Position numbers and translations under genes: made by a program | Origin: a bacterium | GTDB lineage: Bacteria; Patescibacteriota; Patescibacteriia; Patescibacteriales; GWE2-39-37 | Direction: 5' to 3' | Assembly (NCBI GenBank): GCA_037146995.1 | Contig: JBAWWA010000002.1 | Location: forward strand, 1,955 to 65,954 | Length of the DNA: 64,000 nt | The notes under the pieces: model-generated | Databases searched by the model: none | Told to the model about the DNA's origin: nothing | The model's input: only the letters and a program-made list of their open reading frames with translations | In this document: piece by piece, positions 11,328-64,000 of the stretch | Layout of the letters: every line of letters starts with the position of its first letter | Position numbering within the stretch: position 1 is the first letter of the stretch

Positions 11328-11350
11328 TTGTGTATTGTATCAATAAAACA

Positions 11351-11846: not shown

Positions 11847-12002
11847 TATTTCACCTCCTTTCTAATTATTAAATATGTTTATTAAAAAACAGTTATCCAC
11901 ATTATAACATAAATTTATATATAACCGGTAGTGGCAAGGCAAGTAAGCAATAATTCAATCAATTATTTTTTTAAAACAATCACTCTAAAACAACTCACCA
12001 CA

Positions 12003-12380: not shown

Positions 12381-12384
12381 TGAT

Positions 12385-13662: not shown

Positions 13663-13664
13663 AT

Positions 13665-14711: not shown

Positions 14712-14794
14712 ATAGCACTTTATTAAGTAATGATTATATTATATAATAATAAGAGCTGATTGACAAACAATTTTTATCAAATATTATCGACCTT

Positions 14795-16054
14795 ATGAAT
14801 TTTTTTGAACGCTACAAGAAATTAATGATCGGCCTAGCCTTTATTGGCTTCACTGCCCTAATTGGCTATTTTTTATACATAGTGTTCTTTAAGCAATCAG
14901 TCACTACCATACCGATAACCGATGATCAATCGGGCAAAAGTCAAACTGGCTTGCCGTCTGCCTCTCTTGGCACTGACAATCAAATCATTAATAACGGCAC
15001 AGAACAAAAATTAACTGGTCAAAATACTAATAACAACACACCAACTCCTGACACAGGCAGCACCGCTGACTTAGTCGCCAAAGGTGGTATTACCAAAGTC
15101 GAAACTCTTACCAATACTCCCAGCTATGGTGTCAATATGGCCAAAGGCTCAAATGATGCCAGGTATTATGACTCAACTGAGGGTAAATTTTACAAAATCG
15201 ATGCCAATGGCAACAAGACTGCCCTATCGGATAAAAGCTTTTTCGAAGTTCAAAAAGTTACTTGGTCAGGCGCTAACAACAAGGCCATCTTAGAATATCC
15301 TGATGGCTCAAAAACCATTTATGATTTTGATAAGCAAAATCAAATTACCCTGCCCGAACATTGGAAGGATTTTTCATTTTCACCTGACGGTTCCGAGATT
15401 GTTATGAAAACAATGGCAAATGATGTGAACAATCGTTGGCTAGCGGTGACGTCAGCTGATGGCAACAAGGTTTATCCCGTCGAACGAATCGGCGATGAAG
15501 CCAGTATTATTCCGTCATGGTCACCAAACAAACAAATTGTGGCCATGTACACAGAAGGTGCTGGGCTGAATTCGCAAAAAGTCTACTTTGTCGGCTTGAA
15601 TGGTGAAAATTTTAAATCAGCCACCATTGATGGTCGTGACTTCAGACCGCAATGGTCACCACAAGGCGATGTCCTGGCCTACAGTACCTACTCCGATTCA
15701 TCAGACCTTAAGCCAAGCATGTATGTGGTACCTGCCCAGGGTGAACATATCGGCGAAAATACTAAAAATTTAGAAATAAATACCTGGGCTGACAAGTGTT
15801 CTTTTGCAGACAACACCACATTGTACTGTGCTGTACCAAAAGAACTTGAAAGAGGGGCAGGACTCTTTCCCAAAATGGCAGACAACACGGCTGATGACAT
15901 TTACAAGATCGATGTGCAAAGTGGCTTAAAAACCAAGATTGCCGTCCCTGAAACAGATTTGAATATCGTTGAAATGAGCATCTCGGCCGATGGTAGTAAT
16001 TTATTTTTTAATGACAAAGCAACTGGCTTATTACACAAGATTAAACTAAAATAA
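14795..16054 (+). CDS. membrane-anchored TolB-like beta-propeller (PD40 repeat) protein
   Basis: N-terminal TM helix. Repeated FSFSPDGSEIV / PSWSPNKQIVA / PQWSPQGDVLAY / ISADGSNLFF PD40-like blades. Confidence 0.6.
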   Translation: MNFFERYKKLMIGLAFIGFTALIGYFLYIVFFKQSVTTIPITDDQSGKSQTGLPSASLGTDNQIINNGTEQKLTGQNTNNNTPTPDTGSTADLVAKGGITKVETLTNTPSYGVNMAKGSNDARYYDSTEGKFYKIDANGNKTALSDKSFFEVQKVTWSGANNKAILEYPDGSKTIYDFDKQNQITLPEHWKDFSFSPDGSEIVMKTMANDVNNRWLAVTSADGNKVYPVERIGDEASIIPSWSPNKQIVAMYTEGAGLNSQKVYFVGLNGENFKSATIDGRDFRPQWSPQGDVLAYSTYSDSSDLKPSMYVVPAQGEHIGENTKNLEINTWADKCSFADNTTLYCAVPKELERGAGLFPKMADNTADDIYKIDVQSGLKTKIAVPETDLNIVEMSISADGSNLFFNDKATGLLHKIKLK

Positions 16055-16266
16055 TGAAAACAAAAAAATCAAACAAACTGTTTATCATATTTTCAATTAG
16101 CACGCTTATTATCGGAGTAATTGCTTTTAAATATTTATTAATAACCAGTCGACATAGCAGTAGTAATAATAGTCAGTCGGTCACAGCTACCAAAAGTCTG
16201 GATGCAAGTTGCTTTTCTACTACCGAAGACCCATTTGTCACAAAAGTCGACCCAAACTGCAACTAA
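16054..16266 (+). CDS. small membrane protein (70 aa)
   Basis: TAATGA start/stop overlap with upstream gene and stop abutting radA start. One TM helix. Confidence 0.45.
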   Translation: MKTKKSNKLFIIFSISTLIIGVIAFKYLLITSRHSSSNNSQSVTATKSLDASCFSTTEDPFVTKVDPNCN

Positions 16267-17616
16267 ATGTCCAAAATAACTACCATATTTACCTGCTCAA
16301 AATGTGGCGCCCAGTATCCTAAATGGACTGGGCGTTGTTCTGAATGCAGCAGCTGGGGCACAATCGTTCAAGAAACTAAAGATGCCCATACAAACAATAA
16401 AGACAGTCATAAGCAGAATGCCATCGAAACAATTGATTTAGCCACCCTAAAAAAACAAGAAAACAAGCGTCTATCAACTGGGCTAATCGAGCTTGACCGT
16501 GTTTTTGGTGGTGGTTTAGTTCCGGGCTCTTTGATACTACTTGGTGGCGAACCAGGTATTGGCAAATCAACGATCGTGGCTCAAATCGTCAATGAGCTAA
16601 AAAAAAATAAACCAGTCTTATATGTTTCTGGTGAAGAATCTGCTAATCAAGTCAAAGACCGTCTTGAACGTTTAAACATCAACTTTGATAATCTACATTT
16701 TTTAGCTGAGACAAATACGGAAAAAATTGCCGCCACTGCCATAAAGCTCAACCCCGAACTTTTAGTTATTGACTCGATTCAGACCGTGTACTCAAATCAT
16801 GCCGACTCGGAAGCTGGCAGTCTATCACAAATCAGGGCAAGCGCTGTAAGTTTTTTGGAAGTTGCCAAACAGCATGATATTACAACCATAATCATTGGTC
16901 ACATCACCAAGGATGGCCAACTAGCTGGACCAAAAAGCTTGGAACACATAGTTGATGTTGTACTCTATCTAGAGACCGAAAGTAGTCATAATTACAGAAT
17001 ACTCAGATCCAGCAAAAACAGATTTGGCTCAGTCAATGAACTGGGCATTTTTGACATGACAGTCAGTGGCTTCAAAGAGGTCAAGAATCCAGGTTCAATT
17101 TTTCTTGATGTTCATAATCAAGACTTATCAGGCTCAGTCATTAGTTGTGTCATGGAAGGCTCTAGGCCCTTTCTAGTTGAGGTTCAAGCCTTGGTGACCA
17201 AGACCATATTTGGCTATCCTCAAAGAAAAGCCTCTGGCTATGATATAAATCGTTTGCAAGTCCTGACGGCCGTCCTGATGAAGCGAGCTAATTTAAATCT
17301 AACCGACAAAGACATAATCCTAAATGTAGTGGGCGGTTTAAAAATTAACGACCCTGCCCTAGATCTGGCTGTCTGCACTGCCGTCATTTCGTCATTAACG
17401 AATATTGTTATAAATCGCCAAACTTTAATTATTGGCGAAGTCGGTTTAGGCGGTGAAATTCGCAATGTCAGCAAGCTTGATGTTCGACTCAATGAAGCTA
17501 GCAAGTTAGGCTTTACTAAAGTCTTAACTCCGGTGTCACCAATTCAAAGTAAAAAAACCGAACAAATTAATTTAAAAAACGTGAGCGACCTTGTTGAATA
17601 CTTGGCAAAAAATTAA
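16267..17616 (+). CDS. radA: DNA repair protein RadA/Sms
   Basis: N-terminal CSKCGAQYPKWTGRCSECSSW zinc finger. Walker A GGEPGIGKST. KNRFG motif. C-terminal Lon-like domain. Confidence 0.9.
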   Translation: MSKITTIFTCSKCGAQYPKWTGRCSECSSWGTIVQETKDAHTNNKDSHKQNAIETIDLATLKKQENKRLSTGLIELDRVFGGGLVPGSLILLGGEPGIGKSTIVAQIVNELKKNKPVLYVSGEESANQVKDRLERLNINFDNLHFLAETNTEKIAATAIKLNPELLVIDSIQTVYSNHADSEAGSLSQIRASAVSFLEVAKQHDITTIIIGHITKDGQLAGPKSLEHIVDVVLYLETESSHNYRILRSSKNRFGSVNELGIFDMTVSGFKEVKNPGSIFLDVHNQDLSGSVISCVMEGSRPFLVEVQALVTKTIFGYPQRKASGYDINRLQVLTAVLMKRANLNLTDKDIILNVVGGLKINDPALDLAVCTAVISSLTNIVINRQTLIIGEVGLGGEIRNVSKLDVRLNEASKLGFTKVLTPVSPIQSKKTEQINLKNVSDLVEYLAKN

Positions 17617-17642
17617 ATCTTGAACTCATAAAAATAAAAAAA

Positions 17643-17667
17643 CTCCACTGATTAGTGGAGCTTTTTT
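17643..17667. terminator. bidirectional terminator between radA and SpoIID-like gene
   Basis: ACTCCACT-gatt-AGTGGAG followed by TTTTTT, preceded by A-run. Confidence 0.6.
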
Positions 17668-17677
17668 AAAATAAACT

Positions 17678-19345
17678 CTAATAAACTTTTAAGATATCAA
17701 CTCCAGTATAAAAGTACTTTATAACCGTATCCCATTTTTTAGCATCATTTACGACCATTAATAAAGCGCCTCTGGCACTCATACCAACACCATGTCCCCA
17801 AAGTGTTTGACCAGTATCTTGAGGCACCTGTACTGGCACAAGCCAAGGCATGCCAGCCCCACCCCATACCTCCTGATAACTTCGAGTATGACCATCTGAA
17901 CGTGAAAAATATGGCGTTACAATGATTTTGCCTTGATAGGCTACAACCATGCCCCTGGTTTCATTCTCAGCCTGAACTAAGGTTGGCATCCTAGCCTCAG
18001 AGCTGTAGCCACGATAAACCTGATCATAAGTGGAATCTAAATGAAAATGTTCATCAGCATGTTTGGTTGATCCGTCAGGAATCTTAAAGTCAATACCTCT
18101 ATTATAATGATACATGGCATAGCTTCTAGCGGCAGCTAACATTACTTTTTGAAATTCTACAGGTGAATAATTTGATGTCTCACCGAGGCCCTTTAGATAA
18201 AATGATAATGGCAGCTCATTGATAACCCAGAATTTTTTAGTTTTCGTCGAATAATTAAATTCAATTATATTTCTAAATTTATTATCTCTTGTTGTGCCAC
18301 TTCCTTGAGCCACTGCACGATAATTAACCAACGTGGCAACCGAATTTTTTAATCTAGGCACGATTCTAATGGGAAAATTACTGTATTTTGTTATACCCAA
18401 TAATTTAACATAATATTGTTTGGTCGAGGTCGAGAAACCAACCTCTATAGTGGTTGCCGGAATAGCACCAGAGAAAAGCGGTAACGTGCCAGTCATAATG
18501 TCAGTAATTGATTCATGAGATACGATCTGAGAATCAACTGTCGCAAATAAGCCTATGCGCATCATGGGCTCAGTTTTATCTTGAATATTAATATCACTTT
18601 GCCCACTTGAATTGCTTGGCTCGATAGCGCTAGTGTTGCAATTTGCCAAAGCGGCAATCTGATCTGAGGTCACTAATCCAGTTGACGAGCATAAAAAACT
18701 AGAGGCGGCAGTGGAGGTTTTTGTAGATAAATTGCTGGCAATATTTGTATAAATGGTTGAAATTGGCGTCGCGATCGGATTATTATTTGTATTTACTGTT
18801 GACTGAGTATTTGTATTGACCGTTGCCGCAGTCACCGAGGCTGCTTTGTTAACATTTACAAAAACCCGTACAACAGAGCCCTTAATCACCTGTGCCCCAT
18901 TCTCGACCAGCTGAAAATTTTGTTGAATATCACCAGTAACCGCTACCGGAGCCTGTAAATAAAAAGTAAAGCTGCTACTTTTGCCTGGCATAACATCAGT
19001 ATTTAATCCTATTACACGATAATAATTCAGCCAGCTACTATGCTGCAATTGACTCTGACTTTTTAAAAAATCACCAGTCTCTAAAAAAACCTGACCCTTC
19101 TTCCAGATTTTACTGCCATTATTTTTCAAAGTAATGGTCACGGCTGAGGATTTGCCTTGATTAATCGCTGTGAAAATAGTACCGACAGTCGCCTCAGCTT
19201 GTGAGTCTTCCGCGAAAGCTAGTGCCCCTGAGCCAGAAATCAAAAAAACAGTAAAAACAAAAAAAATCAAGCTGAGTGCTATTTTTTTAGTTATTACTGC
19301 CTTCCTAAAACCAACCGCTAACTTGAATTTGTAAAGATTCATCAT
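17678..19345 (-). CDS. secreted SpoIID/LytB-domain protein
   Basis: Signal peptide/TM. C-terminal region with YYLKGLGE...YHY...STYDQVY...PYFSRSDGHTRSYQEVWGG characteristic of the SpoIID/LytB amidase-enhancer domain. Confidence 0.7.
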   Translation of the reverse strand: MMNLYKFKLAVGFRKAVITKKIALSLIFFVFTVFLISGSGALAFAEDSQAEATVGTIFTAINQGKSSAVTITLKNNGSKIWKKGQVFLETGDFLKSQSQLQHSSWLNYYRVIGLNTDVMPGKSSSFTFYLQAPVAVTGDIQQNFQLVENGAQVIKGSVVRVFVNVNKAASVTAATVNTNTQSTVNTNNNPIATPISTIYTNIASNLSTKTSTAASSFLCSSTGLVTSDQIAALANCNTSAIEPSNSSGQSDINIQDKTEPMMRIGLFATVDSQIVSHESITDIMTGTLPLFSGAIPATTIEVGFSTSTKQYYVKLLGITKYSNFPIRIVPRLKNSVATLVNYRAVAQGSGTTRDNKFRNIIEFNYSTKTKKFWVINELPLSFYLKGLGETSNYSPVEFQKVMLAAARSYAMYHYNRGIDFKIPDGSTKHADEHFHLDSTYDQVYRGYSSEARMPTLVQAENETRGMVVAYQGKIIVTPYFSRSDGHTRSYQEVWGGAGMPWLVPVQVPQDTGQTLWGHGVGMSARGALLMVVNDAKKWDTVIKYFYTGVDILKVY

Positions 19346-19563
19346 TGCTTCGTTTTTATTTTATATTTGTTTTTGCAGGTTATGCACTTTTTGCGCACAA
19401 CTTATTTTATACGTTTAAATTATACCAAAAAAACACATAATGGTCAAAAGATGTTGCCTAGTTATTGATTTTAGCTAGCATTTCTTCACACACCCTTGCC
19501 AAAGTTGTTTTTTTTTGTTATATTCTATTTAGCCTTTTTTAGGCTATATTTTTTTATTTTTTA

Positions 19564-19636
19564 GCGCCGTTAGCTCAGCCGGTAGAGCAGGTCCCTTTTA
19601 AGGACAAGGTCGCAGGTCCGAATCCTGCACGGCGCA
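19564..19636 (+). tRNA. tRNA-Lys (anticodon TTT)
   Basis: Acceptor GCGCCGT/ACGGCGC, D-arm GCTCAGCCGGTAGAGC, anticodon loop CTTTTAA, T-arm GCAGG-TCCGAAT-CCTGC, discriminator A. CCA not encoded. Confidence 0.85.
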
Positions 19637-19793
19637 CATTTAGTAATCACTTATTAATTTTGGTGATTATTTTTTTTGTTTATATTAGCCAACCTTAATT
19701 ACTTTTTAACACTAACTCTCGGTTAAATCTAGCGCACCCTTGCAATTTTTCCTTACCTTGATTTTAGAGGAGCAAAAAGGTAATATACTTAAT

Positions 19794-21179
19794 ATGAGCG
19801 AGCCAATAGGAAAACTACCACCCCAAAGCGTTGAAACCGAGGAATCACTCCTTGGTTGTTTATTGATTGATAAAGATGCCATTATCAATGTTGCCGACCT
19901 CATCACTTCTGATGATTTTTATCGTGACGCCAATCGTATCATCTATGAAACGATGCGCGAGCTATTTGCCAGGCAGGAACCTATAGATATAATCACTCTA
20001 ACCAATAAATTAGAGGAAAAAGGAAAATTAGAGATAATTGGCGGACGTACGAATTTAGCGCGACTTTCAAATATGGTGGCTTCAAGTGCTCATGTTGCTT
20101 CATATGCTGCCATCGTCCAAAAAAAAGCAACGCTACGACGTCTAATTGAAGTCTCAAGAGAATTATCAGAGATGGGCTATGCAGAGGATGAAGATGTTGA
20201 TGCCCTGCTCGATGAAGCTGAGAAAAAATTATTTTCAGTTTCACAAAAAAATTCTAAAAATGCTTTTACACAAATTGACGCCTTGCTGGCTGGGGCCTTC
20301 GATCGCATCGACGAACTTCATCGTCAATCAGGCAAACTACGCGGATTATCAACTGGCTTTGTCGATCTAGACAAATTACTCGCTGGTTTTCAACGTTCAG
20401 ATTTAATTATCTTGGCCGCCCGCCCCGCCGTCGGAAAAACTTCACTAGCCCTAGATTTTGCCAGATTCGTATCTTTAAAAAATAATGCTTCAGTGGGTTT
20501 GTTTTCACTAGAAATGAGCAAAGACCAGCTAGTTGATCGTATGCTTTGCGCACAGGCACAAGTAAATCTATGGAAAATGCGTACGGGTAACCTCTCAGAC
20601 AAAGAGGAGGACAATGATTTTACTAAAATTGGCAAAGCCATGGGTCAATTGGCTGAAGCCAAAATTTTCATCGATGATACTTCGAATACCAACATTATGG
20701 ATATTCGCACCAAATGTAGGCGTCTAAAAATGGAACACGGCCTTGACTTCATTGTTATTGACTACCTTCAACTCATGGAGGGCCGCGGCAAATCACAAGA
20801 CAATCGCGTGCAAGAAGTCTCAGAGATATCCCGCGGTTTAAAGGGTATTGCCCGCGAACTAGATGTACCGGTTCTAGCCCTTTCTCAACTCTCTCGTACC
20901 GTCGAGCAAAGCACGCCAGCCATACCGAAGCTTTCTCATTTACGTGAATCTGGCTCAATCGAACAAGACGCCGATATCGTATTGTTTATTTATCGCAAAG
21001 CGGCTGATAGAAACTATCGCCTAGAAGATCTTTCTGATTTTGAGAAACATTCAGCCGAAATACATATTGCAAAACACAGAAATGGCCCGACTGGCATGGT
21101 ACCACTATACTTTAATCCAGACACAGCCAACTATCATAATCTAGAACATCAAGGTTATGAAGCCCCACCAGAATTTTAA
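19794..21179 (+). CDS. dnaB: replicative DNA helicase DnaB
   Basis: N-terminal PPQSVETEESLLGCLL. Walker A ARPAVGKTSLAL. Helicase motifs through to the RecA-like C-terminus. Start taken at the internal ATG (MSEPIGKLPP) rather than the ORF-track start. Confidence 0.85.
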   Translation: MSEPIGKLPPQSVETEESLLGCLLIDKDAIINVADLITSDDFYRDANRIIYETMRELFARQEPIDIITLTNKLEEKGKLEIIGGRTNLARLSNMVASSAHVASYAAIVQKKATLRRLIEVSRELSEMGYAEDEDVDALLDEAEKKLFSVSQKNSKNAFTQIDALLAGAFDRIDELHRQSGKLRGLSTGFVDLDKLLAGFQRSDLIILAARPAVGKTSLALDFARFVSLKNNASVGLFSLEMSKDQLVDRMLCAQAQVNLWKMRTGNLSDKEEDNDFTKIGKAMGQLAEAKIFIDDTSNTNIMDIRTKCRRLKMEHGLDFIVIDYLQLMEGRGKSQDNRVQEVSEISRGLKGIARELDVPVLALSQLSRTVEQSTPAIPKLSHLRESGSIEQDADIVLFIYRKAADRNYRLEDLSDFEKHSAEIHIAKHRNGPTGMVPLYFNPDTANYHNLEHQGYEAPPEF

Positions 21180-50502: not shown

Positions 50503-52302
50503 CTAAAATTTCCAAATTAACCATCCAGGTCCTGGATTTATTAATTGAACAACTGATGCCATCATCACTCCAGGCGCTGCCTCTATCATAATTTCAAACT
50601 CCGAAAACCTAGAATCTACAAATTTAGACTTTGCTGTTTTTAGTGACTTTGCCGTATCTATTCTTGCGTTATCAATGGAAAATAATTTAATGTAGTCCTG
50701 CTCACGTGAGATGCCTTGTTCATCGAAGAAAGATACATATTTCAACGCTGTTTCAATGTCTTTGGAGTCTAGCGCCTCTGCCATCTTTTCCAATGCCTCT
50801 TGAGGTGTTTTTGAATATATTCGAGTATTTTCAATTCTTTTAGAAAATTCTTCAGCTTTAATAATTTCTTTATCTACTGCTACAGACTCGATCAATGCCT
50901 CATTACAATCTGCACGATATATTGATAACACATCACTGCCATATACAATGCCAATATTATCAATAAATATCATATCACTTAAAATTACCCCCCAATTATA
51001 TAATCCTAGTTTTTTTGCAATTTTCCAACTAATGGCGCCGTTATTAGTTTCAAAGATGTAGCCGCCACCAAATAAATATCCATTCATTTTATCTTTAAAA
51101 TATACCTTTAAGTAATTATTAAGTGCATTCTCAACACTTAACATTTTCTTATCTTCGTCGAATTTTTCTACATTATTTATAATTTCAAGACCAATCCAGT
51201 TCTTTCCGCCATCGATAGTTTTCAATATTTTATGCTTATTATACATAAAGCCAACTTGACTATCTACAAAGAATATATTCTTCAATTGTGTCGTCGTACT
51301 ATATATCTCATTCCAAGACAAACCACCATCAACCGTACTCCAAATCTTATCAGACGTATCAAGACCATTATTTACTGACTCGCCCTTACCGTAAGCCCAT
51401 CCTTCATTATCGTTAATAAAAAACAAGCCATTTATTTCATGGAATATATTACTATCGTGCAATGCCCAATTATCGCCTCCATCATCGGTTTTATAAAGAA
51501 GGTCGTTATTTTTATAATTAGTACTTCCCATTATTAACCACCCTTTTTTTGAATCCAAAAAATAAAATTTTTTCACTGACATATGATTAGAAGCTGGAAG
51601 CCACATTTTTTCCACCCAAGTATTCCCACTATCATATGTTTTTAATACATATTGCCCTTCTTCTTTTGTAATTTCACCAGGTTGCCTTAAACCGCCATTA
51701 CTAACAGTAAGTGCAGAAAGCCAATTTTTTTCATCTAAGAAATGAGTCACTGGCCGTAATTCAGTGCTGCCCTTCCACTCGATTTTTGAAATATCCAACC
51801 AATTGATGCCGCCATCAATTGTTTTATGCAAACCACCTTCTTGATCTGCAGCAAAGCCAACTCTATCATTAATAAACTGAATAATTGTGTATCCTATTGG
51901 TAGGTCAATATTTTTCCAATGACTCACCTCAGTGGAGGCTGAAAGAGATGTAGTACTACAACCTAAAACTTGATTATTGATTTTATTAGTAATTGCAATT
52001 TCTTCTTTTTTATTTACACTACTATTAACATCACCAACCTGAATATTCTTATAATTATTCTTCTTGATATTTATGTAAGTATAAATACCTATAGTTGTAA
52101 AAACAAATACAATAATAACAACCAATAATACCTGCTTATTTGTTGCTGCTTTTTTATGTTTCGATGATAAATCTATTTCATTTATACATTCCTCAATTTC
52201 AGAAACAGACCAACTTTTCGACAGGTCGGCTTGCACTTCTGGATATTCTTTGCCAGATTTAAGTTGTTGATTTATAACATCTATGAGTTGTTTGTTTATC
52301 AT
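50503..52302 (-). CDS. membrane-anchored BNR/Asp-box repeat beta-propeller protein (Ycf48/sialidase-like fold)
   Basis: N-terminal TM. Six or more S/T-x-D-G-G-x-x-W Asp-box motifs (TIDGGINW, TYDSGNTW, TDDGGDNW, TVDGGLSW, TIDGGKNW, TNNGAISW). Confidence 0.6.
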   Translation of the reverse strand: MINKQLIDVINQQLKSGKEYPEVQADLSKSWSVSEIEECINEIDLSSKHKKAATNKQVLLVVIIVFVFTTIGIYTYINIKKNNYKNIQVGDVNSSVNKKEEIAITNKINNQVLGCSTTSLSASTEVSHWKNIDLPIGYTIIQFINDRVGFAADQEGGLHKTIDGGINWLDISKIEWKGSTELRPVTHFLDEKNWLSALTVSNGGLRQPGEITKEEGQYVLKTYDSGNTWVEKMWLPASNHMSVKKFYFLDSKKGWLIMGSTNYKNNDLLYKTDDGGDNWALHDSNIFHEINGLFFINDNEGWAYGKGESVNNGLDTSDKIWSTVDGGLSWNEIYSTTTQLKNIFFVDSQVGFMYNKHKILKTIDGGKNWIGLEIINNVEKFDEDKKMLSVENALNNYLKVYFKDKMNGYLFGGGYIFETNNGAISWKIAKKLGLYNWGVILSDMIFIDNIGIVYGSDVLSIYRADCNEALIESVAVDKEIIKAEEFSKRIENTRIYSKTPQEALEKMAEALDSKDIETALKYVSFFDEQGISREQDYIKLFSIDNARIDTAKSLKTAKSKFVDSRFSEFEIMIEAAPGVMMASVVQLINPGPGWLIWKF

Positions 52303-56171: not shown

Positions 56172-56200
56172 TAAAAAAAACGCGGTTATTAAAACCGCGC
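56172..56200 (-). terminator. rho-independent terminator downstream of the gamma-CA-like gene
   Basis: On the minus strand: GCGCGGTT-ttaat-AACCGCG followed by TTTTTTTT. Confidence 0.55.
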
Positions 56201-56374
56201 TAACTACTTGTTTATTTTCGCTCATGACAATTGGCAAAAAAATTACAGAGCCTATTAAAAGGTTCCTCGATGAATTTAGCCACAAAAGCCATGATGTCAT
56301 CAAAAAACTCCAAATAGCACCAGACGCCACCAAGAAGCATTAACATTGCCACTGCAGACATAATCGCCTCCATA

Positions 56375-57181
56375 CTAGCGCACCTCGATAGTTTTATTTA
56401 GGGCCATGGCCATTTCCTTCATGCAACGCAGGGCCATGTCAAATTGCTCCTCTGGTGTCAGATTCTTGGCCATGTTTACGGCTTTGTGATGTTCTAAGTC
56501 ATGTTGACGCCGCTTGTAGAGAGCGCACAACTGCTTGTTTTCATCCACAACACTTTTATTCAGGTCATTGTCTGCCTCGGCAATATCCCTCGGCACATGC
56601 GGCAGCCTGTCAGCTGTTTCTTGGTTATTGACCACCCAGCCATCAGGCACGAGGCGATGATTGTCAATCCTGACATTTGCCACAACGGCGTTAATGCCGA
56701 TATGACAATAATCACCAACGGTGGCTTTTTTCACCACCGCACCATGATCAAGCATACAATTACGCCCAATCGTGGAGTGATGAACAATGACATTAAAGCC
56801 GATAAAACATTTTTTACCCAGATAAGCCGGACCATGAATGGTTGCCTTGTGAGCAACTGAACAATGTTTGCCGACCCAGACGCAATACTTTTTGCCGTCG
56901 TCTCCGTCGACAAAAAGGCCTCCATGCGCATGAACCAAGGTGTGATCTTGAAAGTTGACACCCTCAGAAATTCTCACCCCACCGTAATTTTCATCGTTAA
57001 GATAGACATCTTTTACCTCGTCGATGCGAATAACCGTGTCGGGCAAAATTGTCACTCGAGGCCCGATACTGATTTGACCAATGATAATCGCACTTTCACT
57101 TACAATGGCGCTCTTATCAATGGTCGGGTTGCCAAAAAAAGAATCGTTGAAACGAAACCTACCCGGTTTTCCTGCATCCAT
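56375..57181 (-). CDS. left-handed beta-helix (hexapeptide repeat) protein, gamma-carbonic-anhydrase-like, with C-terminal alpha-helical extension
   Basis: Hexapeptide repeats throughout. HAHGG and H-x4-HG (SVAHKATIHG) match gamma-CA zinc-ligand spacing. About 80-aa charged C-terminal tail. Confidence 0.6.
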   Translation of the reverse strand: MDAGKPGRFRFNDSFFGNPTIDKSAIVSESAIIIGQISIGPRVTILPDTVIRIDEVKDVYLNDENYGGVRISEGVNFQDHTLVHAHGGLFVDGDDGKKYCVWVGKHCSVAHKATIHGPAYLGKKCFIGFNVIVHHSTIGRNCMLDHGAVVKKATVGDYCHIGINAVVANVRIDNHRLVPDGWVVNNQETADRLPHVPRDIAEADNDLNKSVVDENKQLCALYKRRQHDLEHHKAVNMAKNLTPEEQFDMALRCMKEMAMALNKTIEVR

Positions 57182-57417
57182 GTTGCTCTCCTTTTTTACT
57201 GTAATTTATTACCGTTCAAATGTGAACGTCCTACTTTTTGTAAAGATCTCCTTTTGTAACAATTTATGATTATTGCATAAATACACATTTGTGTCAATAT
57301 TAGCCACTTTTAAACAATTTAGGTTCAAAAATATCCTAATTTATACAATATTCTTCAAGATACAACTATTATATGCTACTCCCTGTAATAATTACGTCAA
57401 GTGTATGGCGCAATAAC

Positions 57418-57446
57418 TTGACATTAATATATATTTGTGCTATATT
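57418..57446 (+). promoter_or_regulatory. near-consensus sigma70 promoter for small peptide gene
   Basis: TTGACA, 17-nt spacer, TATATT. 35 nt upstream of ATG 57481. Confidence 0.55.
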
Positions 57447-57480
57447 ATAAATATAAAAAATTATCCAAAAGGAGGGGCAA

Positions 57481-57564
57481 ATGAGTGGATATTTAATGTC
57501 CGTTGGCTTAGTCATACTTGTTATTGTTCTGTGGAACCTAATGGGCTATATCTTGCCCGAATAA
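57481..57564 (+). CDS. 27-aa hydrophobic single-TM peptide (MSGYLMSVGLVILVIVLWNLMGYILPE)
   Basis: Strong RBS AAAGGAGGGG 5 nt upstream. Promoter and terminator are both well formed. Not in the ORF track (below the size cut-off). Confidence 0.5.
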   Translation: MSGYLMSVGLVILVIVLWNLMGYILPE

Positions 57565-57589
57565 TAACTAACAAAAAACCTTTTACCCT

Positions 57590-57616
57590 AGCCTCAATTC
57601 GTTGAGGCTTTTTTCT
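57590..57616 (+). terminator. rho-independent terminator after the small peptide gene
   Basis: AGCCTCAA-ttcg-TTGAGGCT then TTTTTC. Confidence 0.6.
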
Positions 57617-57632
57617 TTTAAAAAAATAAAAA

Positions 57633-57660
57633 AGAATCGATTTTAGTCGATTCTTTTTTC
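57633..57660. terminator. bidirectional terminator (also ends the complex-I-like operon on the minus strand)
   Basis: AAGAATCGA-ttttag-TCGATTCTT flanked by A-run and T-run. Lies 11 nt past the stop of the NuoCD-like gene. Confidence 0.6.
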
Positions 57661-57670
57661 TAAATATATT

Positions 57671-59224
57671 TTACATGTCAGTACCGGAATAACTCAGGTT
57701 AAGCGATTTGTTGCACAGCGGAAAGTCTGGTACGATATTGCCCGGACCGATGATGCCAAAGGTGGCCCAATTACAAAATGATGGATCACGCGGAAAACAA
57801 CGCTCAATCTGGCCGTTTCTTATTACTACAGCACAGAGAACTTCACCCCGCCATGACTCGGTTGCGCCAATAGCGTAACCATCTCTCGGTGTGCAATTAA
57901 CGCTATACTCACCGGTCGGCATTTGATCAATTAAAATATTAATGAGTCGCACTGTTTCGTTTAATTCATCTAGACGCGCCGTAAATCGCGCATGAACATC
58001 ACCAGCCGTTTTTACAACCACTTTAACCGGAAATTTCGCGTAAGCAGCGTGCGGAAAATCGCGCCGAACATCACGATCAACCCCGGAACTTCTAGCTGGC
58101 AATCCCAGTGCGCCAAAGGCCTTGGCCGCTTCCAATGGCAAAATTCCAGTTGTCTGCAAACGATCCATAAAACCTTCTGAGGACAAAGCAGTCGTTGTTA
58201 TTTCCTTGATCTCGGCAAAAGCCTCATTAACAACTAGCTTGATACGAGCCAACTCGGAGGTGGTAAAGCTTTTAGAAACACCCCCTGGCAAAATCAAACC
58301 TCGCCAAAATCGATTACCAAGCACTTCCTCTGACAAACGCATTAGACGTTCTTTGACTCGAAAACCATTGGCCGCAATAAAACTAAAGCCTGTGCCCATA
58401 CCGCCAATATTAGCAATGTCGTGAACATGCATCGTCAAGCGTTCAAGTTCAGCAACTAGCGTTCTTAAAATCAAGGCCAGTTCAGGCACATTAACGTTGG
58501 CAAGAATCTCTACGGCCTGACAATAGGCCAAAGCATTGGCAGCCGCCATATCACCAGACAAGCGCTCAATAAATTTCAAACCCTCAACCGGAGTTTTGCC
58601 TTCTAAAAGCTTCTCGACGCCTTTGTGAGTAAAGAAAAGCTTGCCCTCTAAAGTAATAATACGCTCGCCTGCCACATTAAATCTAAAATGACCAGGCTCA
58701 ATAATACCCGCATGAATCGGTCCGACTGGAATTTCAAAAATCCCCTCGCCTTTGACATGGCCCATCGGATATGGCTCATTGGCATGTTCAAGTTTTTTAT
58801 TCCAAATAAAATCTTTTCTTAATGGGTGAGTAGCATTAGGAATATTTTCATGATTAACCAAACGACGCAAATCTGGATGGCCATCCGGCACCACACCGAA
58901 CATGTCATGACTATAGCGTTCATACCAATGTGCGGCCATAATCGTCGCAGTAATCGACGGATAATGAGGGTGACTAGCACTCACCTCCGCACGCAGTTCG
59001 AGCCGCTCATGACTCTCGTCTAGACTAAATACTGCATGAACTGTGTAGCATTTTTTTTCAGCCCGTTCATCGGTCACAAACATTAACGATAATGGCAGGT
59101 CATATTCATTCACCAAAGCAGTCGCTATTTTAGCTATATCATCACTGTTAACCGTAACACAATATATGTTGGCCAGGAGTTCTGCCTTAAGTTGTAATTT
59201 TGACAAAATTTCTAAAGCTTTCAT
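57671..59224 (-). CDS. fused NuoC/NuoD-like (HycE-like) large-subunit homologue lacking all [NiFe]-binding cysteines
   Basis: N-terminal 30-kDa-subunit motif HWYERYSHDMFGVVPDGHPDLRRL. Large-subunit motifs GPIHAGIIEPGHFRF. The L1 site reads ERLSGDMAAANALAY (canonical R-x-C-G-x-C). The C-terminal L2 site reads NLSYSGTDM (canonical D-P-C-x-x-C-x-x-H/R). Confidence 0.8.
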   Translation of the reverse strand: MKALEILSKLQLKAELLANIYCVTVNSDDIAKIATALVNEYDLPLSLMFVTDERAEKKCYTVHAVFSLDESHERLELRAEVSASHPHYPSITATIMAAHWYERYSHDMFGVVPDGHPDLRRLVNHENIPNATHPLRKDFIWNKKLEHANEPYPMGHVKGEGIFEIPVGPIHAGIIEPGHFRFNVAGERIITLEGKLFFTHKGVEKLLEGKTPVEGLKFIERLSGDMAAANALAYCQAVEILANVNVPELALILRTLVAELERLTMHVHDIANIGGMGTGFSFIAANGFRVKERLMRLSEEVLGNRFWRGLILPGGVSKSFTTSELARIKLVVNEAFAEIKEITTTALSSEGFMDRLQTTGILPLEAAKAFGALGLPARSSGVDRDVRRDFPHAAYAKFPVKVVVKTAGDVHARFTARLDELNETVRLINILIDQMPTGEYSVNCTPRDGYAIGATESWRGEVLCAVVIRNGQIERCFPRDPSFCNWATFGIIGPGNIVPDFPLCNKSLNLSYSGTDM

Positions 59225-59231
59225 ATATTTT

Positions 59232-60692
59232 TTAACTTAAATTTTTTATAATATCAACCACGAAGCCAGTGCCACTTGACGATGTAAACCAAACACCCAA
59301 CAAGATAACTGCAATTATATGAACCAACATGACACTGTGAGTAATATTCCAGTGCTCTCGTGTCTCATTTAAATCAGTAGTATTTGCTTTTTCCAAAATC
59401 ATACCAATTGTCGTTCTTAGCATGCCAAAGGCAATAACACCAAGGGCAATGAAAACCGCGATTGACAGATACAAATGAGCTTTGATCATTGCCGAAAAGA
59501 GCGTAAATTCACTAACAAATAATATTGACGGTGGCATTGCCACAATAAAAATTATCCCGATTAAAAACAAAGAGCTCGTATAGGGCGCATACTTTAACAA
59601 GCCGCCAACTTTAGTTGTGTCAGTTGTTTTATAGCGCAACAGTATTTCACCAGCTCCAAAAAATAATCCAGATTTTATGATTGAATGACCAATCATATGG
59701 ATAACTGCAGCCATTACGCCGATAGGCGGCAAGGCCAAGCCTAGGGCAATCAAGCCCATGTGCTCAATACTTGAATAGGCGAGCATCCTTTTGTAATTCC
59801 TTTGCACGAGCAACATAAAGGCTGGTAATACGACCGACAAGATACCGAAAAATAAAAAGAATTTACCAGTCCATTCACTCCCGCCTATGGCCTGATTAGC
59901 AATCATTTGAAAACGAATAATCGCATACAAAGCCACGTTTAACAATATGCCAGAAAACAAGGCCGAGATTGGCGATGGCGCCTTGCTGTGGGCATCTGGT
60001 AGCCACGTATGGATTGGCGCGAAACCGACTTTAGCACCAAAACCCACAAAGATAAAAACAAAAGCCCATTTTACAAGCTCCGGCGACAAGGCGCTAGTAT
60101 TCTTCAATAAATCACTGATCAAAAAACTAACTGATTGATCTGCCCCAGCCTGCGATGTATAACCGAGTAAAAGTATGCCAATCAAACCTAAAGTAATACC
60201 AGTTGAGCAAATAATAATATATTTCCAAGCAGCCTCAAGTGATGAGCGCTTGCGATAAAGACCAACCAAGAAGGTCGAAGATAAAGTTGTTGCTTCTAGA
60301 GCCAACCACATAATCAAAGTATTATTAGTGACAACGACTAAAAACATTGCCATCACGAACAAAGGTAGCAAAGTGAAATATAATTTTAGATCATTGATTT
60401 TCACCTCTCCATCCTTAAATTCATGACCAATATAGCGCACACTAACAATAGTGGCACTTAAAGATAATAAAGCGATTAGACTAGCAATCAAGGCTCCGAA
60501 TCTATCCAAATAAAACCACTCAGTAATTAAAACCTCTGTGCCAAAAAATTGTGGTGAGACGAATAACCAAATTGTCAAAGCAGAAGCGATGGATACAGCA
60601 CCAGCCGACAAACGAATGATTTTTTCGTTTTTTTGCACCACAGCAAGAATGACTGCCAAACTAAAAAGTCCAAAGATAAATAAAATATTCAT
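59232..60692 (-). CDS. NuoN/NuoM/MrpD-family antiporter-like membrane subunit
   Basis: 14 TM helices. Hallmark ...GFAPIHTWLPDAHSKAPSPISAL. Confidence 0.85.
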   Translation of the reverse strand: MNILFIFGLFSLAVILAVVQKNEKIIRLSAGAVSIASALTIWLFVSPQFFGTEVLITEWFYLDRFGALIASLIALLSLSATIVSVRYIGHEFKDGEVKINDLKLYFTLLPLFVMAMFLVVVTNNTLIMWLALEATTLSSTFLVGLYRKRSSLEAAWKYIIICSTGITLGLIGILLLGYTSQAGADQSVSFLISDLLKNTSALSPELVKWAFVFIFVGFGAKVGFAPIHTWLPDAHSKAPSPISALFSGILLNVALYAIIRFQMIANQAIGGSEWTGKFFLFFGILSVVLPAFMLLVQRNYKRMLAYSSIEHMGLIALGLALPPIGVMAAVIHMIGHSIIKSGLFFGAGEILLRYKTTDTTKVGGLLKYAPYTSSLFLIGIIFIVAMPPSILFVSEFTLFSAMIKAHLYLSIAVFIALGVIAFGMLRTTIGMILEKANTTDLNETREHWNITHSVMLVHIIAVILLGVWFTSSSGTGFVVDIIKNLS

Positions 60693-60693
60693 A

Positions 60694-62289
60694 TTATTCG
60701 GTTAAATTTCTCAATTCCTCGGTATCCACTGAACCGTAAAAATACTTAATTCGTGAACCAAGAAGCGAAAGAATTAAAGCTGTTAAAGCGGTGACGGTAA
60801 AAACACCCATCTCAATTATTAACGGCAATGACTTGACTGTCACAAGCGTAAATATGGCGATACCATTTTCAACAACAAGCAGACCGATAATTTGAGAAAA
60901 AACATTTCTATGGACAATCATAGTGGCAAGACCCAAAACTAGCAGCCCAACTGAAGCAAACAATAAACTACTCCACTCAACCAAGGCAAAAATTGGCGTC
61001 TTTTGAACAATAAAAAATACAAAGACTAAAAGTAGCGCTGCCAAAAGATAGCTTGAAGCCGGTCTCAAGAAAGACTGTAAATTCGCCGTATGTCGCTGTT
61101 GTTTTTCCATTATCTTAATAACGTATGGCACTAACAGGACTTTTACGGCGATCGTTACAACAGCGAAAATCAATAAATGAGTCTGCTCTTCTGGGGCCAT
61201 TAAGGCAAGACTATAGGCAATGCCTGCAATCATTAATGATGAGGCTGCATAATATCTAAGTATTGATTTCAATCTTAACCGACCGAAGAGTAACACCACA
61301 AAGAAAACCGACATAGCAGCAAAGACAGTATAATATTTTATATCAGGTCCGGTAAGTTTGACATATACAGCCACCATCATGCCAAAAAAAGCCGTAAAAA
61401 AAGCCAAGGATAAATATTCAGGCATCCTATAAAACCTCATTTTAACTATGGTCATTTCTAACCAACCCAGCAAGACGGCAACCATAGAAACCTTAAGGAT
61501 TGCCAAAAGTATAGCCAAAATACCACCACCGACACTAAGACTAAAAATCGTTACAGGCGGAAAAACAAAATTCGCAATTAAAATTGAAAAGGCTGCTAAT
61601 TTTATTGCCGAAGCGTATTCTAGCAAGGCCAAATAGCGACCAGAATATTCAAGAATCATGGCCTCATGAACCATAGTTAACTCAAGATGCGTTGCCGGAT
61701 TATCAACAGGATAACGTGCATTTTCAGCCAGTGAGACCAAGACAAAGGCAATCATTAAAATTATCAAATGCGGGGCACTAAAAATTAAAGACTGCGCAAA
61801 CATACCATCAAGCTGAAAAGAGCCTGTCACAAAAGCTAAAGCACCAAATATCAAAATAACAGTTGGCTCAATCAACGAGGCCAGAGTCATTTCACGCGAT
61901 GAGCCCATGCCCCCAAAAGCGCTAGCGGAATCTAGACCGCCCAAAACCAAAAAGATCGAGCCAACAATCATAAAGGCTGCTACCACCAAAAAATCACTAG
62001 CGAAAGCCAAGGCACCACCACTAAAAACTAAGGGCAATATAAAAGCCAAGGCTATTGTCGAGGCTAGTACCACAAAAGGTACGGCCCTAAAAACCCAAGA
62101 AGTGGATTTTGAGATAACCATTTCTTTCTTGAGTAAAGTCAAGATCGTATAATAGGGCAAAAATGGCGAAGCTCCGCGTCTGCCCTGCAATCGAGCCTTG
62201 GTAAACCTAACCAGACCGACAGAAAATGGTGCTACCAACAATATGGTCAGGCCTTGCAATATTGTAGCTAAAATTTGAAATGAGTTCAT
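60694..62289 (-). CDS. NuoH/HycD-like membrane subunit fused to a C-terminal ~200-aa polytopic extension (HyfE/NuoK-like?)
   Basis: N-terminal LLVAPFSVGLVRFTKARLQGRRGASPFLPYYTIL matches the NuoH/HycD signature. Total 531 aa versus about 310-330 for NuoH. C-terminal third has about 6 extra TM helices. Confidence 0.7.
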   Translation of the reverse strand: MNSFQILATILQGLTILLVAPFSVGLVRFTKARLQGRRGASPFLPYYTILTLLKKEMVISKSTSWVFRAVPFVVLASTIALAFILPLVFSGGALAFASDFLVVAAFMIVGSIFLVLGGLDSASAFGGMGSSREMTLASLIEPTVILIFGALAFVTGSFQLDGMFAQSLIFSAPHLIILMIAFVLVSLAENARYPVDNPATHLELTMVHEAMILEYSGRYLALLEYASAIKLAAFSILIANFVFPPVTIFSLSVGGGILAILLAILKVSMVAVLLGWLEMTIVKMRFYRMPEYLSLAFFTAFFGMMVAVYVKLTGPDIKYYTVFAAMSVFFVVLLFGRLRLKSILRYYAASSLMIAGIAYSLALMAPEEQTHLLIFAVVTIAVKVLLVPYVIKIMEKQQRHTANLQSFLRPASSYLLAALLLVFVFFIVQKTPIFALVEWSSLLFASVGLLVLGLATMIVHRNVFSQIIGLLVVENGIAIFTLVTVKSLPLIIEMGVFTVTALTALILSLLGSRIKYFYGSVDTEELRNLTE

Positions 62290-64000
62290 AAAGCGATACT
62301 TAAAGCAACAATTAAGGTTGCCAATAACAAAAGTAAATAATACTGAATCCTGCCGCTTTGGATTAATTTAACTCTAAGCGATAAAAAATTCATAAATTTC
62401 TCAATGGGCAGATACACGCTACTCTTCCAGGCAGAACTAATTAAAAGCGAAAATGAATAATTACGAATCCAGGGATTAGTGACCACAACTGGCTCGCTAG
62501 TAATTAATTTGTTTCTGCCAATTAAATTGAGGAAAAAAAATCTGATCGGCGCCGAAAAAGCGGCTGCTGTATATTCCATAGTTGAATTTATCGGCTGTCC
62601 GCAATCCCAGGTATGATATGAACGCTCTTTTTTATTTAGCGCAAAGAAGTAATTCAAAAGATAGGCAAATAGTAAAAAACCTAAAACGACGGACAATAGT
62701 TGCATAGATGATATAGAGCCAATGGCATTTTCCGTAATCAATTCAGAACTATTTAATACATTGGAAATAATGCTAATAAAATAATTTGCAAAAATACCAA
62801 TACTTAAAACACCAAGTGCTAATCCGGCAATCGGCCAAACTAAAAGTCCATCACCTAACTCAGACTTTATTTCATGCTCACGATACCTTGGCAAGCCCAG
62901 CATAGAAATAGCAAAAATCTTGATCATCGCAAAAACAGCTAAACCCCCGATCAAACCGATTACTGATAAAATTAGAACCACAATTGGCAATAGCATGCCA
63001 CCGGCTTGAGACATTAAACTAATAGCCACATGAATCAAGCCCCATTCGCCATAAAAAGTACCGAACGGCGGAATTGGTAACGAACCCATAATAACCAGTA
63101 AAAAGAAAAAAGAAAATAAAGGTAAAGACTTCGCAAAGCCACCCATAAGCTCTAGACTGCGAGAATGGACACGACTAATGACTAAACCACTCGAAAGGAA
63201 TAGGGCCGTCTTAAAGAAGGCATGACTCAAACTATGAATGATAGCAAAAACAATCAAGGGAATAAAATATCTCATTAAATTTGAATGAGCATAGTTTGCT
63301 GTAATATAAATTGCCAAGCCAATAACAGAAAATATAATTCCCATATTTTCAATACTGCTATAGGCAAAAGCCTTTTTCATGTCAGTTTCAATTGCCGCAT
63401 AAAGTGCGCCGACAACACCGGACACAAGCCCAAGAATGATCACCAAGGTGCCAGCCCAGGTTGGCATGTAGGCAAAATTCAAGACCACCATCAAGAAACC
63501 ATAAATCGCCACTTTTAACATCAAGCCAGACATAAGAGCGGAAATATTGCTTGGAGCCTGTGGATGTGCTTCTGGCAACCAAACATGGAGTGGAACAAGT
63601 CCAGCCTTTGAACCAAATCCAAATAAAAACAAACAAAAGGCAGCAGTAGCCAAAGTTGGCGTCAACTGCTGTGTCACTTCTTGAATCATTGATAAATCAA
63701 AAAACAAGGAGCCATTTCCCAATATTAAAAAACCACCTAATATCGCCGAAGCTCCGAGGTGGGTCATAATGAAATACAAGAATGCTGCGTTGAAAGACTC
63801 TTTAGTCTTGTCTGACAATACCAAAAAGAAAGAACTTAGAGACATTACCTCCCAAAAAAACAAGAAAGTAAATGAGTTGTTGGCAAGCAATACTGCCTGC
63901 ATACCAAAAACAAACAATCCCATTAAAAATTGGGTTGTGTATTTGTTATAAGTTTTTTGATACAGATCAAGATATCTAACACTATAAACGCCAACCAAAG
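62286..64000 (-). CDS. NuoL/MrpA/HycC-family antiporter-like subunit (N-terminus lies beyond window end)
   Basis: Hallmark GLVPLHVWLPEAHPQAPSNISAL. ATGA overlap with the next gene. ORF runs to the window edge. Confidence 0.8.
   Translation of the reverse strand, partial: LVGVYSVRYLDLYQKTYNKYTTQFLMGLFVFGMQAVLLANNSFTFLFFWEVMSLSSFFLVLSDKTKESFNAAFLYFIMTHLGASAILGGFLILGNGSLFFDLSMIQEVTQQLTPTLATAAFCLFLFGFGSKAGLVPLHVWLPEAHPQAPSNISALMSGLMLKVAIYGFLMVVLNFAYMPTWAGTLVIILGLVSGVVGALYAAIETDMKKAFAYSSIENMGIIFSVIGLAIYITANYAHSNLMRYFIPLIVFAIIHSLSHAFFKTALFLSSGLVISRVHSRSLELMGGFAKSLPLFSFFFLLVIMGSLPIPPFGTFYGEWGLIHVAISLMSQAGGMLLPIVVLILSVIGLIGGLAVFAMIKIFAISMLGLPRYREHEIKSELGDGLLVWPIAGLALGVLSIGIFANYFISIISNVLNSSELITENAIGSISSMQLLSVVLGFLLFAYLLNYFFALNKKERSYHTWDCGQPINSTMEYTAAAFSAPIRFFFLNLIGRNKLITSEPVVVTNPWIRNYSFSLLISSAWKSSVYLPIEKFMNFLSLRVKLIQSGRIQYYLLLLLATLIVALSIAL

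Follow-up and report, generated by a model that had tools for sequence, protein, structure and literature searches.

A 64,000-nucleotide stretch of a patescibacterial contig (JBAWWA010000002.1, positions 1,955 to 65,954; hereafter the window) carries near its end a minus-strand gene module related to complex I and group 4 [NiFe] hydrogenases, followed by a gene for a gamma-class carbonic anhydrase (CA). We found that the module has lost the redox-cofactor ligands of its peripheral arm, that it is conserved, that it is linked to the genes of the F-type ATPase (atp) and to CA genes, and that CA genes of different classes replace one another beside it. The reading that we favor, with a rough probability of 0.45, is a non-redox proton or cation translocator that would work with CA and the F-ATPase, the CA being coupled through the reaction that it catalyzes.

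Bacteria of the candidate phyla radiation (CPR, or Patescibacteria) account for a sizeable part of bacterial diversity and possess ATP synthases but no respiratory chain. How the membrane is energized and regulated in these ultra-small groundwater bacteria is the question on which the module bears. Complexes related to energy-converting hydrogenases (Ehr; Marreiros et al., 2013, as cited in PMC6349859) are widespread and have so far been proposed as redox-driven ion pumps, usually in formate dehydrogenase (FDH)-Ehr or Mbx-type roles for which redox partners are assumed (PMC6349859). Jaffe et al. (2020; BMC Biol 18:69, PMC7304191) described a monophyletic CPR Ehr group without the NiFe cysteines and concluded that it cannot interact with H2. 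The window module is no different in kind and shows the same NiFe-cysteine loss; the passages of that paper that were searched do not mention "carbonic anhydrase". Our literature searches returned no report of small-subunit cluster loss in CPR Ehr, of their linkage to atp, or of a link between Ehr or a CPR complex and CA. The complete loss of redox ligands, the atp linkage, the linkage to interchangeable CAs, and a new beta-CA-fold family therefore appear to be newly reported here.

Composition of the module

An earlier note on this DNA, made from the letters alone, had described four minus-strand genes with a large subunit free of NiFe ligands, then a terminator, a convergent peptide gene, and a gamma-CA gene. 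A listing of open reading frames (ORFs) combined with family scans found the four tightly packed genes, and all the other elements, in place. The main components of the window are as follows.

62286-64000, minus strand, cut at the window edge: HyfB/NuoL-like antiporter subunit (PF00361, 4e-46; NF005086 "hydrogenase 4 subunit B", 1e-126)
60694-62289, minus strand: HyfC/NuoH-HyfE/NuoK-like fusion, 531 aa (PF00146, 9e-30, residues 14-304; NF008556 HyfE, 4e-19, residues 370-529)
59232-60692, minus strand: HyfF/NuoN(M)-like antiporter subunit, 486 aa (NF005044 HyfF, 3e-116)
57671-59224, minus strand: NuoC-NuoD (HycE-like) fusion, the Ehr large subunit, 517 aa (PF00329 and PF00346)
56375-57181, minus strand: Cam/CcmM-class gamma-CA, 268 aa, with a C-terminal extension of about 45 aa (NF053794 CcmM domain, 4e-39; NF040597 carbonic anhydrase, 2e-35)

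The junctions from HyfB through HyfC-E and HyfF to NuoCD are a 4-nt overlap, in which the start codon of the fusion overlaps the HyfB stop codon, a 1-nt gap, and a 7-nt gap. The PF00420 match of the HyfC-E fusion is weak. Alignment of HyfF with MbhH (6CFW_H, its best solved match) and NdhF showed that the Glu of transmembrane helix (TM) 5, the Lys of TM7, the His/Lys of TM8, and the Glu of TM12 are kept; the equivalent charged motifs of HyfB were seen by eye. The window holds the 3' 1.7 kb of the HyfB gene. An exact-protein look-up returned two further assemblies of the window sequence (L001 and L002), which are 100% identical to it over the 2 kb compared. Because identical sequence occurs in three independent assemblies, the placing of the small-subunit gene beyond the window edge is no assembly artefact. 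In L001 the complete HyfB has 661 aa (4954-6939, DNA 100% identical), and the genes outward from it are those for a NuoB-like protein, a 334-aa protein, a GGDEF protein, AtpC, and AtpD:

L001 4405-4938: NuoB-like small subunit (NuoB*), 177 aa, PF01058, 15 nt upstream of HyfB
L001 3390-4394: CSDGR protein, 334 aa, no Pfam match, 10 nt upstream of nuoB*
L001 2313-3383: GGDEF (diguanylate cyclase) gene, 6 nt upstream of the CSDGR gene

The earlier note had seen no small subunit in place and had supposed that NuoB- or ferredoxin-like genes might lie beyond the window edge. The former is true of the position downstream of the large subunit, and a cluster-free NuoB* is encoded upstream; as to the latter, the NuoB-like gene was found, and no genes for NuoI/HycF, NuoE/F/G, NuoA/J, other Fe-S proteins, or redox partners occur within 10 kb on either side. 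No FDH or maturation genes were found nearby. Equivalents of MrpB/E/F/G are absent among the module genes, and a NuoH-like subunit stands in their place.

More than 120 clusters share 60-72% identity with the large subunit, and the taxa named among them are all CPR (Falkowbacteria, Moranbacteria, Uhrbacteria, and Parcubacteria). The module combines a group-4-like large subunit free of NiFe ligands with Mrp/Nuo antiporter-like subunits, as Ehr are defined, and judged by sequence it is a member of the CPR Ehr clade, in which all core loci have the order NuoB-HyfB-HyfC/E-HyfF-NuoCD. Across 20 large subunits the mean column identity is 69%, with the C-terminal 62 aa nearly invariant; the C-terminal motif is common to all Ehr and so not diagnostic of the clade. 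The intact frames, the tight spacing, and this identity with many invariant columns across several candidate phyla exclude decay, in agreement with the earlier view of a functional assembly. HyfC and HyfE form one fused gene in the core CPR clade and are separate in distant Patescibacteria and in non-CPR Ehr (window compared with L012, L013, L017, and others).

Loss of the redox ligands in both peripheral subunits

Among solved structures, the large subunit matches HycE of E. coli best (7Z0S_E; E = 4e-66). In the alignment, RVCGIC of HycE becomes RLSGDM and DPCYSC becomes NLSYSG, so that all four NiFe ligands are replaced (C to S, C to M, C to S, and C to G) and the module is no hydrogenase, as the earlier note had it. 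The patterns R[ILV]SGD and NLSYSG[TN]D occur in every core CPR sequence with readable regions. NuoB* reads GSN..NSE, GDG, and GDPP, where its relatives read GSC..NxC, GxC, and GCPP; its four cysteines for an N2-type [4Fe-4S] cluster are replaced by N, E, G, and D.

We compared 105 NuoB-like proteins from 171 loci. At the ligand positions, every CPR-clade locus examined carries T/N/S, E, G, and D/N/E/S in place of the four cysteines, and in the small subunits of the core clade former cysteine positions are now conserved E and D residues. An intermediate set comprising Saccharibacteria, Daviesbacteria, Levybacteria, Firestonebacteria, and a Thermoleophilia metagenome-assembled genome retains one cysteine. 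Non-CPR relatives (Nitrospirota, Bacillota, Acidobacteriota, Verrucomicrobiota, and others) retain all four and have the gene order HyfB-C-E-F-large-NuoB; most are Ehr, with RISGD and NLSYSG, and a minority are true hydrogenases (RICGAC and ELCYAC). The non-CPR Ehr loci L014-L088 include those of Sporomusa (L017), Nitrospirota (L053, L055), and Acidobacteriota (L074, L080), all with RISGD/NLSYSG, four NuoB cysteines, and NuoB last; in L055 two full sets of Ehr genes lie in tandem (about 4000-20000).

The module thus has neither the two CxxC motifs of a group 4 [NiFe] hydrogenase large subunit nor the four-cysteine cluster of its small subunit. Of complex I it lacks the N2 cluster in NuoB, the quinone-site Tyr, and NuoE/F/G/I. 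The window large subunit, like hydrogenases, has Gly at what we take to be the position of the quinone-site Tyr of NuoD (RLDY, in the motif register that we assume), and a divergent complex I, the possibility left open by the earlier note, was not borne out. With both its NiFe site and the sole Fe-S cluster of its peripheral arm gone, the module cannot be driven by electron transfer. It would therefore have to be driven by an ion gradient or generate one.

Linkage of the module to atp and CA genes

Scanning metagenomes with the C-terminus specific to the clade added 80 loci. Loci were dereplicated at 97% nucleotide identity, and the core clade was defined by a large subunit at least 58% identical to that of the window, which left 56 lineages. 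A contig scan with patterns shared by all HycE/NuoD relatives returned mostly non-CPR Ehr, which served as the outgroup. The atpC gene lies at most two genes upstream of the module in 19 of the 29 lineages with a visible upstream flank, as against 1 of 39 non-CPR Ehr.

Of the 56 lineages, 29 have a CA-like gene adjacent to the module, or 25 when one small unverified family is left out; where both flanks are visible (27 lineages), the numbers are 17 and, for verified families only, 13. By lineage, the types are CsoSCA-like (16), gamma-CA (5), Pro_CA_2 (4), CSDGR (3), and the unverified "CxD...HxPC" family (4). When each lineage was represented by one locus and ORFs of 100 aa or more were counted, 26 of 147 genes at most two positions from the module were verified CA-like genes, as against none of 217 farther away in these loci (Fisher p = 1.4e-11). 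All 26 are at the first position, 20 after the large subunit and 6 before NuoB, on the strand of the module, with gaps of 10-550 nt. The linkage persists where the module is not beside atp (L091 and L136), and no CA-like neighbors were detected for non-CPR Ehr.

A membrane-anchored DUF4349 protein of about 310-330 aa recurs just past the CA gene (L134, 10304-11260; L096, 11074-12000). It also follows a CSDGR gene at a locus without Ehr (L005, 5316-6278), and 11 further loci carry DUF4349.

Families of the CA-like partners

The best solved relatives of the window gamma-CA are the Methanosarcina Cam structures (1e-23) and CcmM. When the protein was aligned by MAFFT with Cam and with four homologues encoded at related loci, it proved that the zinc ligands H81, H117, and H122 are kept (Cam numbering), as are R59, D61, E62, Q75, D76, and N202, and the acidic proton-shuttle loop with E84 is missing. 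By these residues the product is a Cam-class gamma-CA and no generic hexapeptide acyltransferase, the alternative that the earlier note had allowed for; the CA linkage is moreover conserved, position-specific, and kept by non-orthologous replacement. A word-indexed homologue search with this protein returned only two relatives.

The CsoSCA-like family invariably carries C, D, R, H, and C at the zinc-site positions of CsoSCA. Its profile matches CsoSCA structures at 4e-10 with the zinc-site residues aligned, and two of its proteins reach the Pfam gathering score for PF20686. A family of 307-335 aa passes the gathering score for PF20393 (Pro_CA_2).

Nine relatives of the CSDGR protein were found by word-indexed search, and 670 representative clusters by exhaustive profile search. 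Across 124 sequences HxxC never varies and CxD almost never, with the consensus CxDER. The top matches of the profile among sequences of the Protein Data Bank are beta-CAs (1DDZ, 6e-4; CcaA, 2e-3). An AlphaFold2 model of the member P0005, built on the 124-sequence alignment, has a mean predicted local distance difference test (pLDDT) score of 96.9; an earlier model from a 9-sequence alignment (pLDDT 57, motif regions below 50) was discarded. A Foldseek search with the P0005 model gave no match. With the deep alignment, hhalign related CSDGR to the CsoSCA-like family at 85% probability; shallow-profile comparisons with the CsoSCA-like and small families were uninformative. On alignment and predicted structure, we assign the CSDGR proteins to a new putative beta-CA-fold family that has no Pfam model; the substrate may be CO2, or COS or CS2 as in some beta-CA relatives.

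In the seven independent contexts examined, CSDGR genes close the atp operon, immediately behind atpC, and this is so also at CPR loci without Ehr there (L005, L007/L008, and L172/L173), a placement that would tie CA-like proteins to proton-pumping machinery in general. The Ehr-linked CSDGR proteins are extended by an N-terminal helical stretch and have two insertions, all of which the atpC-only copies lack. One member, P0154 (616 aa), is fused to a GGDEF domain, which parallels the adjacent GGDEF gene of the window organism and hints at a beta-CA-like domain as a CO2/bicarbonate-sensing input to cyclic di-GMP signaling.

A further family, of 173-246 aa with invariant C-x-D and P-C (mostly H-x-P-C), stands beside the Ehr module in four lineages. 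It has no Pfam match, profile comparisons did not confirm it as CA, and it was left out of the verified counts; from its motifs it is possibly a fifth CA-like partner. Its members are at:

L090 10640-11197; L101 10629-11150; L102 2296-2925; L117 2306-2962; L146 1952-2692

Replacement of CA genes in the same slot

The loci L096 and L099 encode AtpD, AtpC, and NuoB that are 100% identical, other Ehr subunits that are 96-97% identical (NuoCD 96%), and downstream proteins that are 90-98% identical. Their DNA is collinear at 90-96% apart from one segment, exactly around the CA gene: L096 has a 204-aa gamma-CA at 10300-11065, and L099 has a 359-aa CsoSCA-like protein at 10309-11493. L137 shares this synteny, its large subunit is 64% identical to the one in L096, and its slot is occupied by a Pro_CA_2-type gene. 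In the closest relatives of the window (L003 and L006), a CsoSCA-like gene lies between the large-subunit gene and groES, in the place of the window gamma-CA.

Judged by sequence and position, this is non-orthologous replacement of one predicted activity by an equivalent one at an equivalent position. The clean swap of a gamma-CA and a CsoSCA-like cassette between near-identical strains argues that CA activity is the target of selection. Since unrelated CA folds are swapped freely, functional coupling is favored over fixed docking of a gamma-CA.

Comparison with known systems

The Ehr of other phyla share the RISGD/NLSYSG signatures and the kinds of membrane subunit. They differ in that NuoB, with four cysteines, follows the large subunit, in that HyfC and HyfE are separate, and in that, apart from the single atpC case above, no atp or CA neighbors were detected. 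Against E. coli formate hydrogenlyase and hydrogenase-4 (HycE/HyfG, HycG/HyfI, and HyfB-F; 7Z0S), the membrane subunits score as HyfB, HyfC, HyfE, and HyfF. The window module, however, is without the NiFe site, the small-subunit Fe-S cluster, the HycF/HyfH ferredoxin subunit, and nearby FDH or maturation genes. With the membrane module of Mrp and MBH it shares MrpA/D-like subunits, the charged residues of which were checked in HyfF; MrpB/E/F/G-like genes are absent, and their place is taken by a NuoH-like subunit together with a peripheral arm that is conserved and free of cofactors.

Two known systems pair such subunits with CA-like proteins. DAB (DabA/DabB) is a CA driven by the proton motive force (pmf), in which a complex-I-type antiporter subunit is joined by a beta-CA-fold protein with no redox input (PMC13144422). 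The likeness is the genetic pairing of an antiporter-like subunit with a beta-CA-fold protein. DAB, however, has two subunits, whereas the window module has five core subunits including a NuoH-like one and a NuoB/C/D arm, and, unlike DAB, the partners of the module include interchangeable conventional gamma and CsoSCA-type CAs. The CSDGR, CsoSCA-like, Pro_CA_2, and small-family proteins gave no match to PF10070 (DabA/DUF2309). In cyanobacterial NDH-1MS/MS', CupA or CupB on NdhF3/F4-NdhD3/D4 forms a Zn-dependent CO2-hydration module coupled via proton-pumping subunits (PMC6981117). NDH-1MS is redox-driven, through ferredoxin, Fe-S clusters, and plastoquinone, whereas the CPR module has no redox cofactors, and the CupA/CupB (ChpX/Y) family was not found among the neighbors scanned.

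Gamma-CA chains of mitochondrial complex I from plants and protists are among the weaker matches of the window gamma-CA (E about 1e-7), which is much closer to Cam and CcmM (1e-23). Because the window protein is encoded on its own and beta-class CAs can take its place, a fixed structural gamma-CA domain is unlikely. Of the Ehr-type, CO2-linked module that the earlier note had put forward, the Ehr type and the CA linkage have stood up, and a fixed gamma-CA docking as in plant complex I is the less favored form of coupling; the CO2-coupled mechanism is what we infer.

A proposed CA-assisted translocator and its alternatives

In the explanation that we favor, NuoB*, HyfB, HyfC-E, HyfF, and NuoCD* would form an ion-gradient-linked translocator working beside the F1Fo ATPase that is encoded directly upstream. 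Its function would depend on fast cytoplasmic interconversion of CO2 + H2O and HCO3- + H+. The adjacent CAs, in the window organism the downstream Cam-type gamma-CA and the upstream CSDGR protein, would supply this interconversion, so that CA would feed or remove the protons, and bicarbonate as counter-ion, that are moved by the complex and the ATPase. Acid-secreting cells of animals, in which CA is paired with H+-ATPases and Na+/H+ exchangers, offer an analogy. Coupling of this kind would run through the reaction, making a fixed docking site unnecessary. The translocator part of the reading follows from the proton-transfer residues (Lys/Glu/His) checked in the HyfF membrane arm, all of which are kept, and the work of the complex would have to involve CO2, HCO3-, and H+. 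We infer ion translocation itself, its direction, the ion moved, and the physiological purpose, which may be pH and ion homeostasis in CO2-rich cells without respiration. A CA-assisted translocator would also explain both the interchangeability of the CAs and the association of CSDGR with atp where there is no Ehr.

Several points weigh against this explanation. About half of the core-clade lineages show no adjacent CA-like gene, and neither do the more distant Ehr that lack the cluster, those of Saccharibacteria and Levybacteria among them. The window gamma-CA forms a transcription unit of its own, 489 nt from the large subunit and behind a terminator. A plain antiporter would have no need of a strongly constrained NuoB/NuoCD arm, and Mrp antiporters manage without it; the arm must therefore have a task, which the explanation leaves unspecified. 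That these cells need a kinetic CO2/HCO3- buffer is argued by analogy.

A possible, if somewhat unlikely, alternative is an energy-coupled vectorial CA of the DAB or NDH-1MS-CupA kind with a docked CA-like subunit, here the long CSDGR protein. The hydration proton would be withdrawn via the antiporter-like subunits at the expense of the pmf made by the ATPase, CO2 would be trapped as bicarbonate, and proton chemistry at a carboxylate-lined pocket, the former NiFe/N2 site, would replace the redox trigger. The conserved E and D at former cysteine positions suit such a pocket, and the extension and insertions found in Ehr-linked but not in atpC-only CSDGR proteins, together with the gap of 10-61 nt between CSDGR and nuoB*, suit a dedicated subunit. 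Fe-S loss also coincides with the gain of CA and atp linkage when the CPR core is set against non-CPR Ehr, and there are the two precedents for pairing complex-I-type antiporter subunits with CA-like proteins (PMC13144422, PMC6981117). Yet only 3 of the 56 lineages have CSDGR next to the module. The partners seen most often are conventional and presumably reversible enzymes with full catalytic residues, which, sharing the cytoplasm with a bicarbonate pump, would short-circuit it, and the exchange of trimeric gamma and dimeric beta folds next to a NuoB that is 100% and a NuoCD that is 96% identical is hard to fit with a specific docking interface. The neighbors scanned show no DabA (PF10070) or CupA match, and few bicarbonate-consuming pathways are known in CPR bacteria, which also counts against it.

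More broadly, the module could mark the third time that complex-I/hydrogenase machinery was independently turned into an energy-coupled CO2/bicarbonate enzyme, with the proton chemistry of CA replacing electron transfer; we regard this as unlikely. If it were true, the complex would, with the ATP synthase, be the chemiosmotic core of bacteria without a respiratory chain, either as a pmf-driven CO2 trap or as a CO2/HCO3--linked translocator feeding the ATP synthase in CO2-rich, poorly equilibrated groundwater. Two variants were considered and rejected. A pump making pmf from near-equilibrium CO2/HCO3- conversion would have a few kJ/mol at its disposal against about 12 kJ/mol per proton (our own estimate). 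A Na+-coupled ATP synthase was set aside on the c subunit of L003, where the carboxylate context is AEA, without the Ser/Thr of Na+-binding c rings; the ATP synthase is probably H+-coupled, judging from these residues.

We think it quite unlikely that the module is a redox-independent Mrp-like antiporter, or has some other membrane function, to which the CA neighbors are uncoupled and merely inherited with an atp-ehr-groESL island. The half of the clade that has no adjacent CA speaks for such synteny, as do the predicted promoter and terminator of the window gamma-CA's own and the other recurrent neighbors, which are clearly unrelated (DUF4349, a UvrD-like helicase, and tRNA synthetases). It leaves unexplained, however, why four non-homologous CA types occupy exactly the first position on either side, why the CA linkage holds without neighboring atp, and why a cassette was replaced cleanly between near-identical strains. 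That the module is still redox-driven, through an unrecognized cofactor or a partner encoded elsewhere such as FDH, or is a decaying remnant, is very improbable: FDH-Ehr and Mbx-type roles are the usual proposals for Ehr (PMC6349859) and non-CPR Ehr keep the N2-type cysteines, but every clade locus examined has no ligand of a known cluster left in either peripheral subunit, no redox genes lie in the 10 kb around the module, and the intact, tightly spaced, and constrained genes speak against decay.

A CA-assisted translocator thus remains our preferred reading. An Ehr free of redox centers shows a complex-I scaffold retained for a non-redox job, and its placement between the atp operon and interchangeable CA genes points to CO2/HCO3-/H+ chemistry as that job. 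The module also offers a natural cofactor-free system for communication between peripheral and membrane arms in relatives of complex I, and makes the function of a widespread complex experimentally approachable.

Other features of the window

The region downstream of the large subunit contains the following elements.

57628-57659, minus strand: terminator-like hairpin and T-run, 12 nt past the large-subunit stop codon
57590-57609: terminator-like site of the 27-aa ORF
57481-57564, plus strand: convergent ORF for a 27-aa hydrophobic peptide (MSGYLMSVGLVILVIVLWNLMGYILPE), with a perfect AAGGAGG ribosome-binding site
57418-57446: promoter-like site of the 27-aa ORF
57269-57297, minus strand: strong promoter-like site TTGACA-17-AATAAT with TG (11/12), about 90 nt 5' of the gamma-CA start
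56212-56373, minus strand: 53-aa ORF directly 3' of the gamma-CA gene
56179-56201: terminator-like site after the 53-aa ORF

The 53-aa ORF has no family match and is not conserved in the other loci; groES and then groEL follow the terminator beyond it. A related convergent ORF of 34 aa lies at the equivalent place in L003 (18591-18695, minus strand) and shares the motif W-x4/5-[YF]-[IL]-[IL]-P-E with the 27-aa peptide. This motif occurs in only 2 of 54 related loci and is not broadly conserved, and the membership of the peptide in the system is uncertain. Farther away, at 50503-52302 on the minus strand, the window encodes a 599-aa protein with no Pfam family on record, which has an N-terminal membrane anchor and repeated motifs of the DGG.NW type that give it the appearance of a BNR/Ycf48-like propeller.

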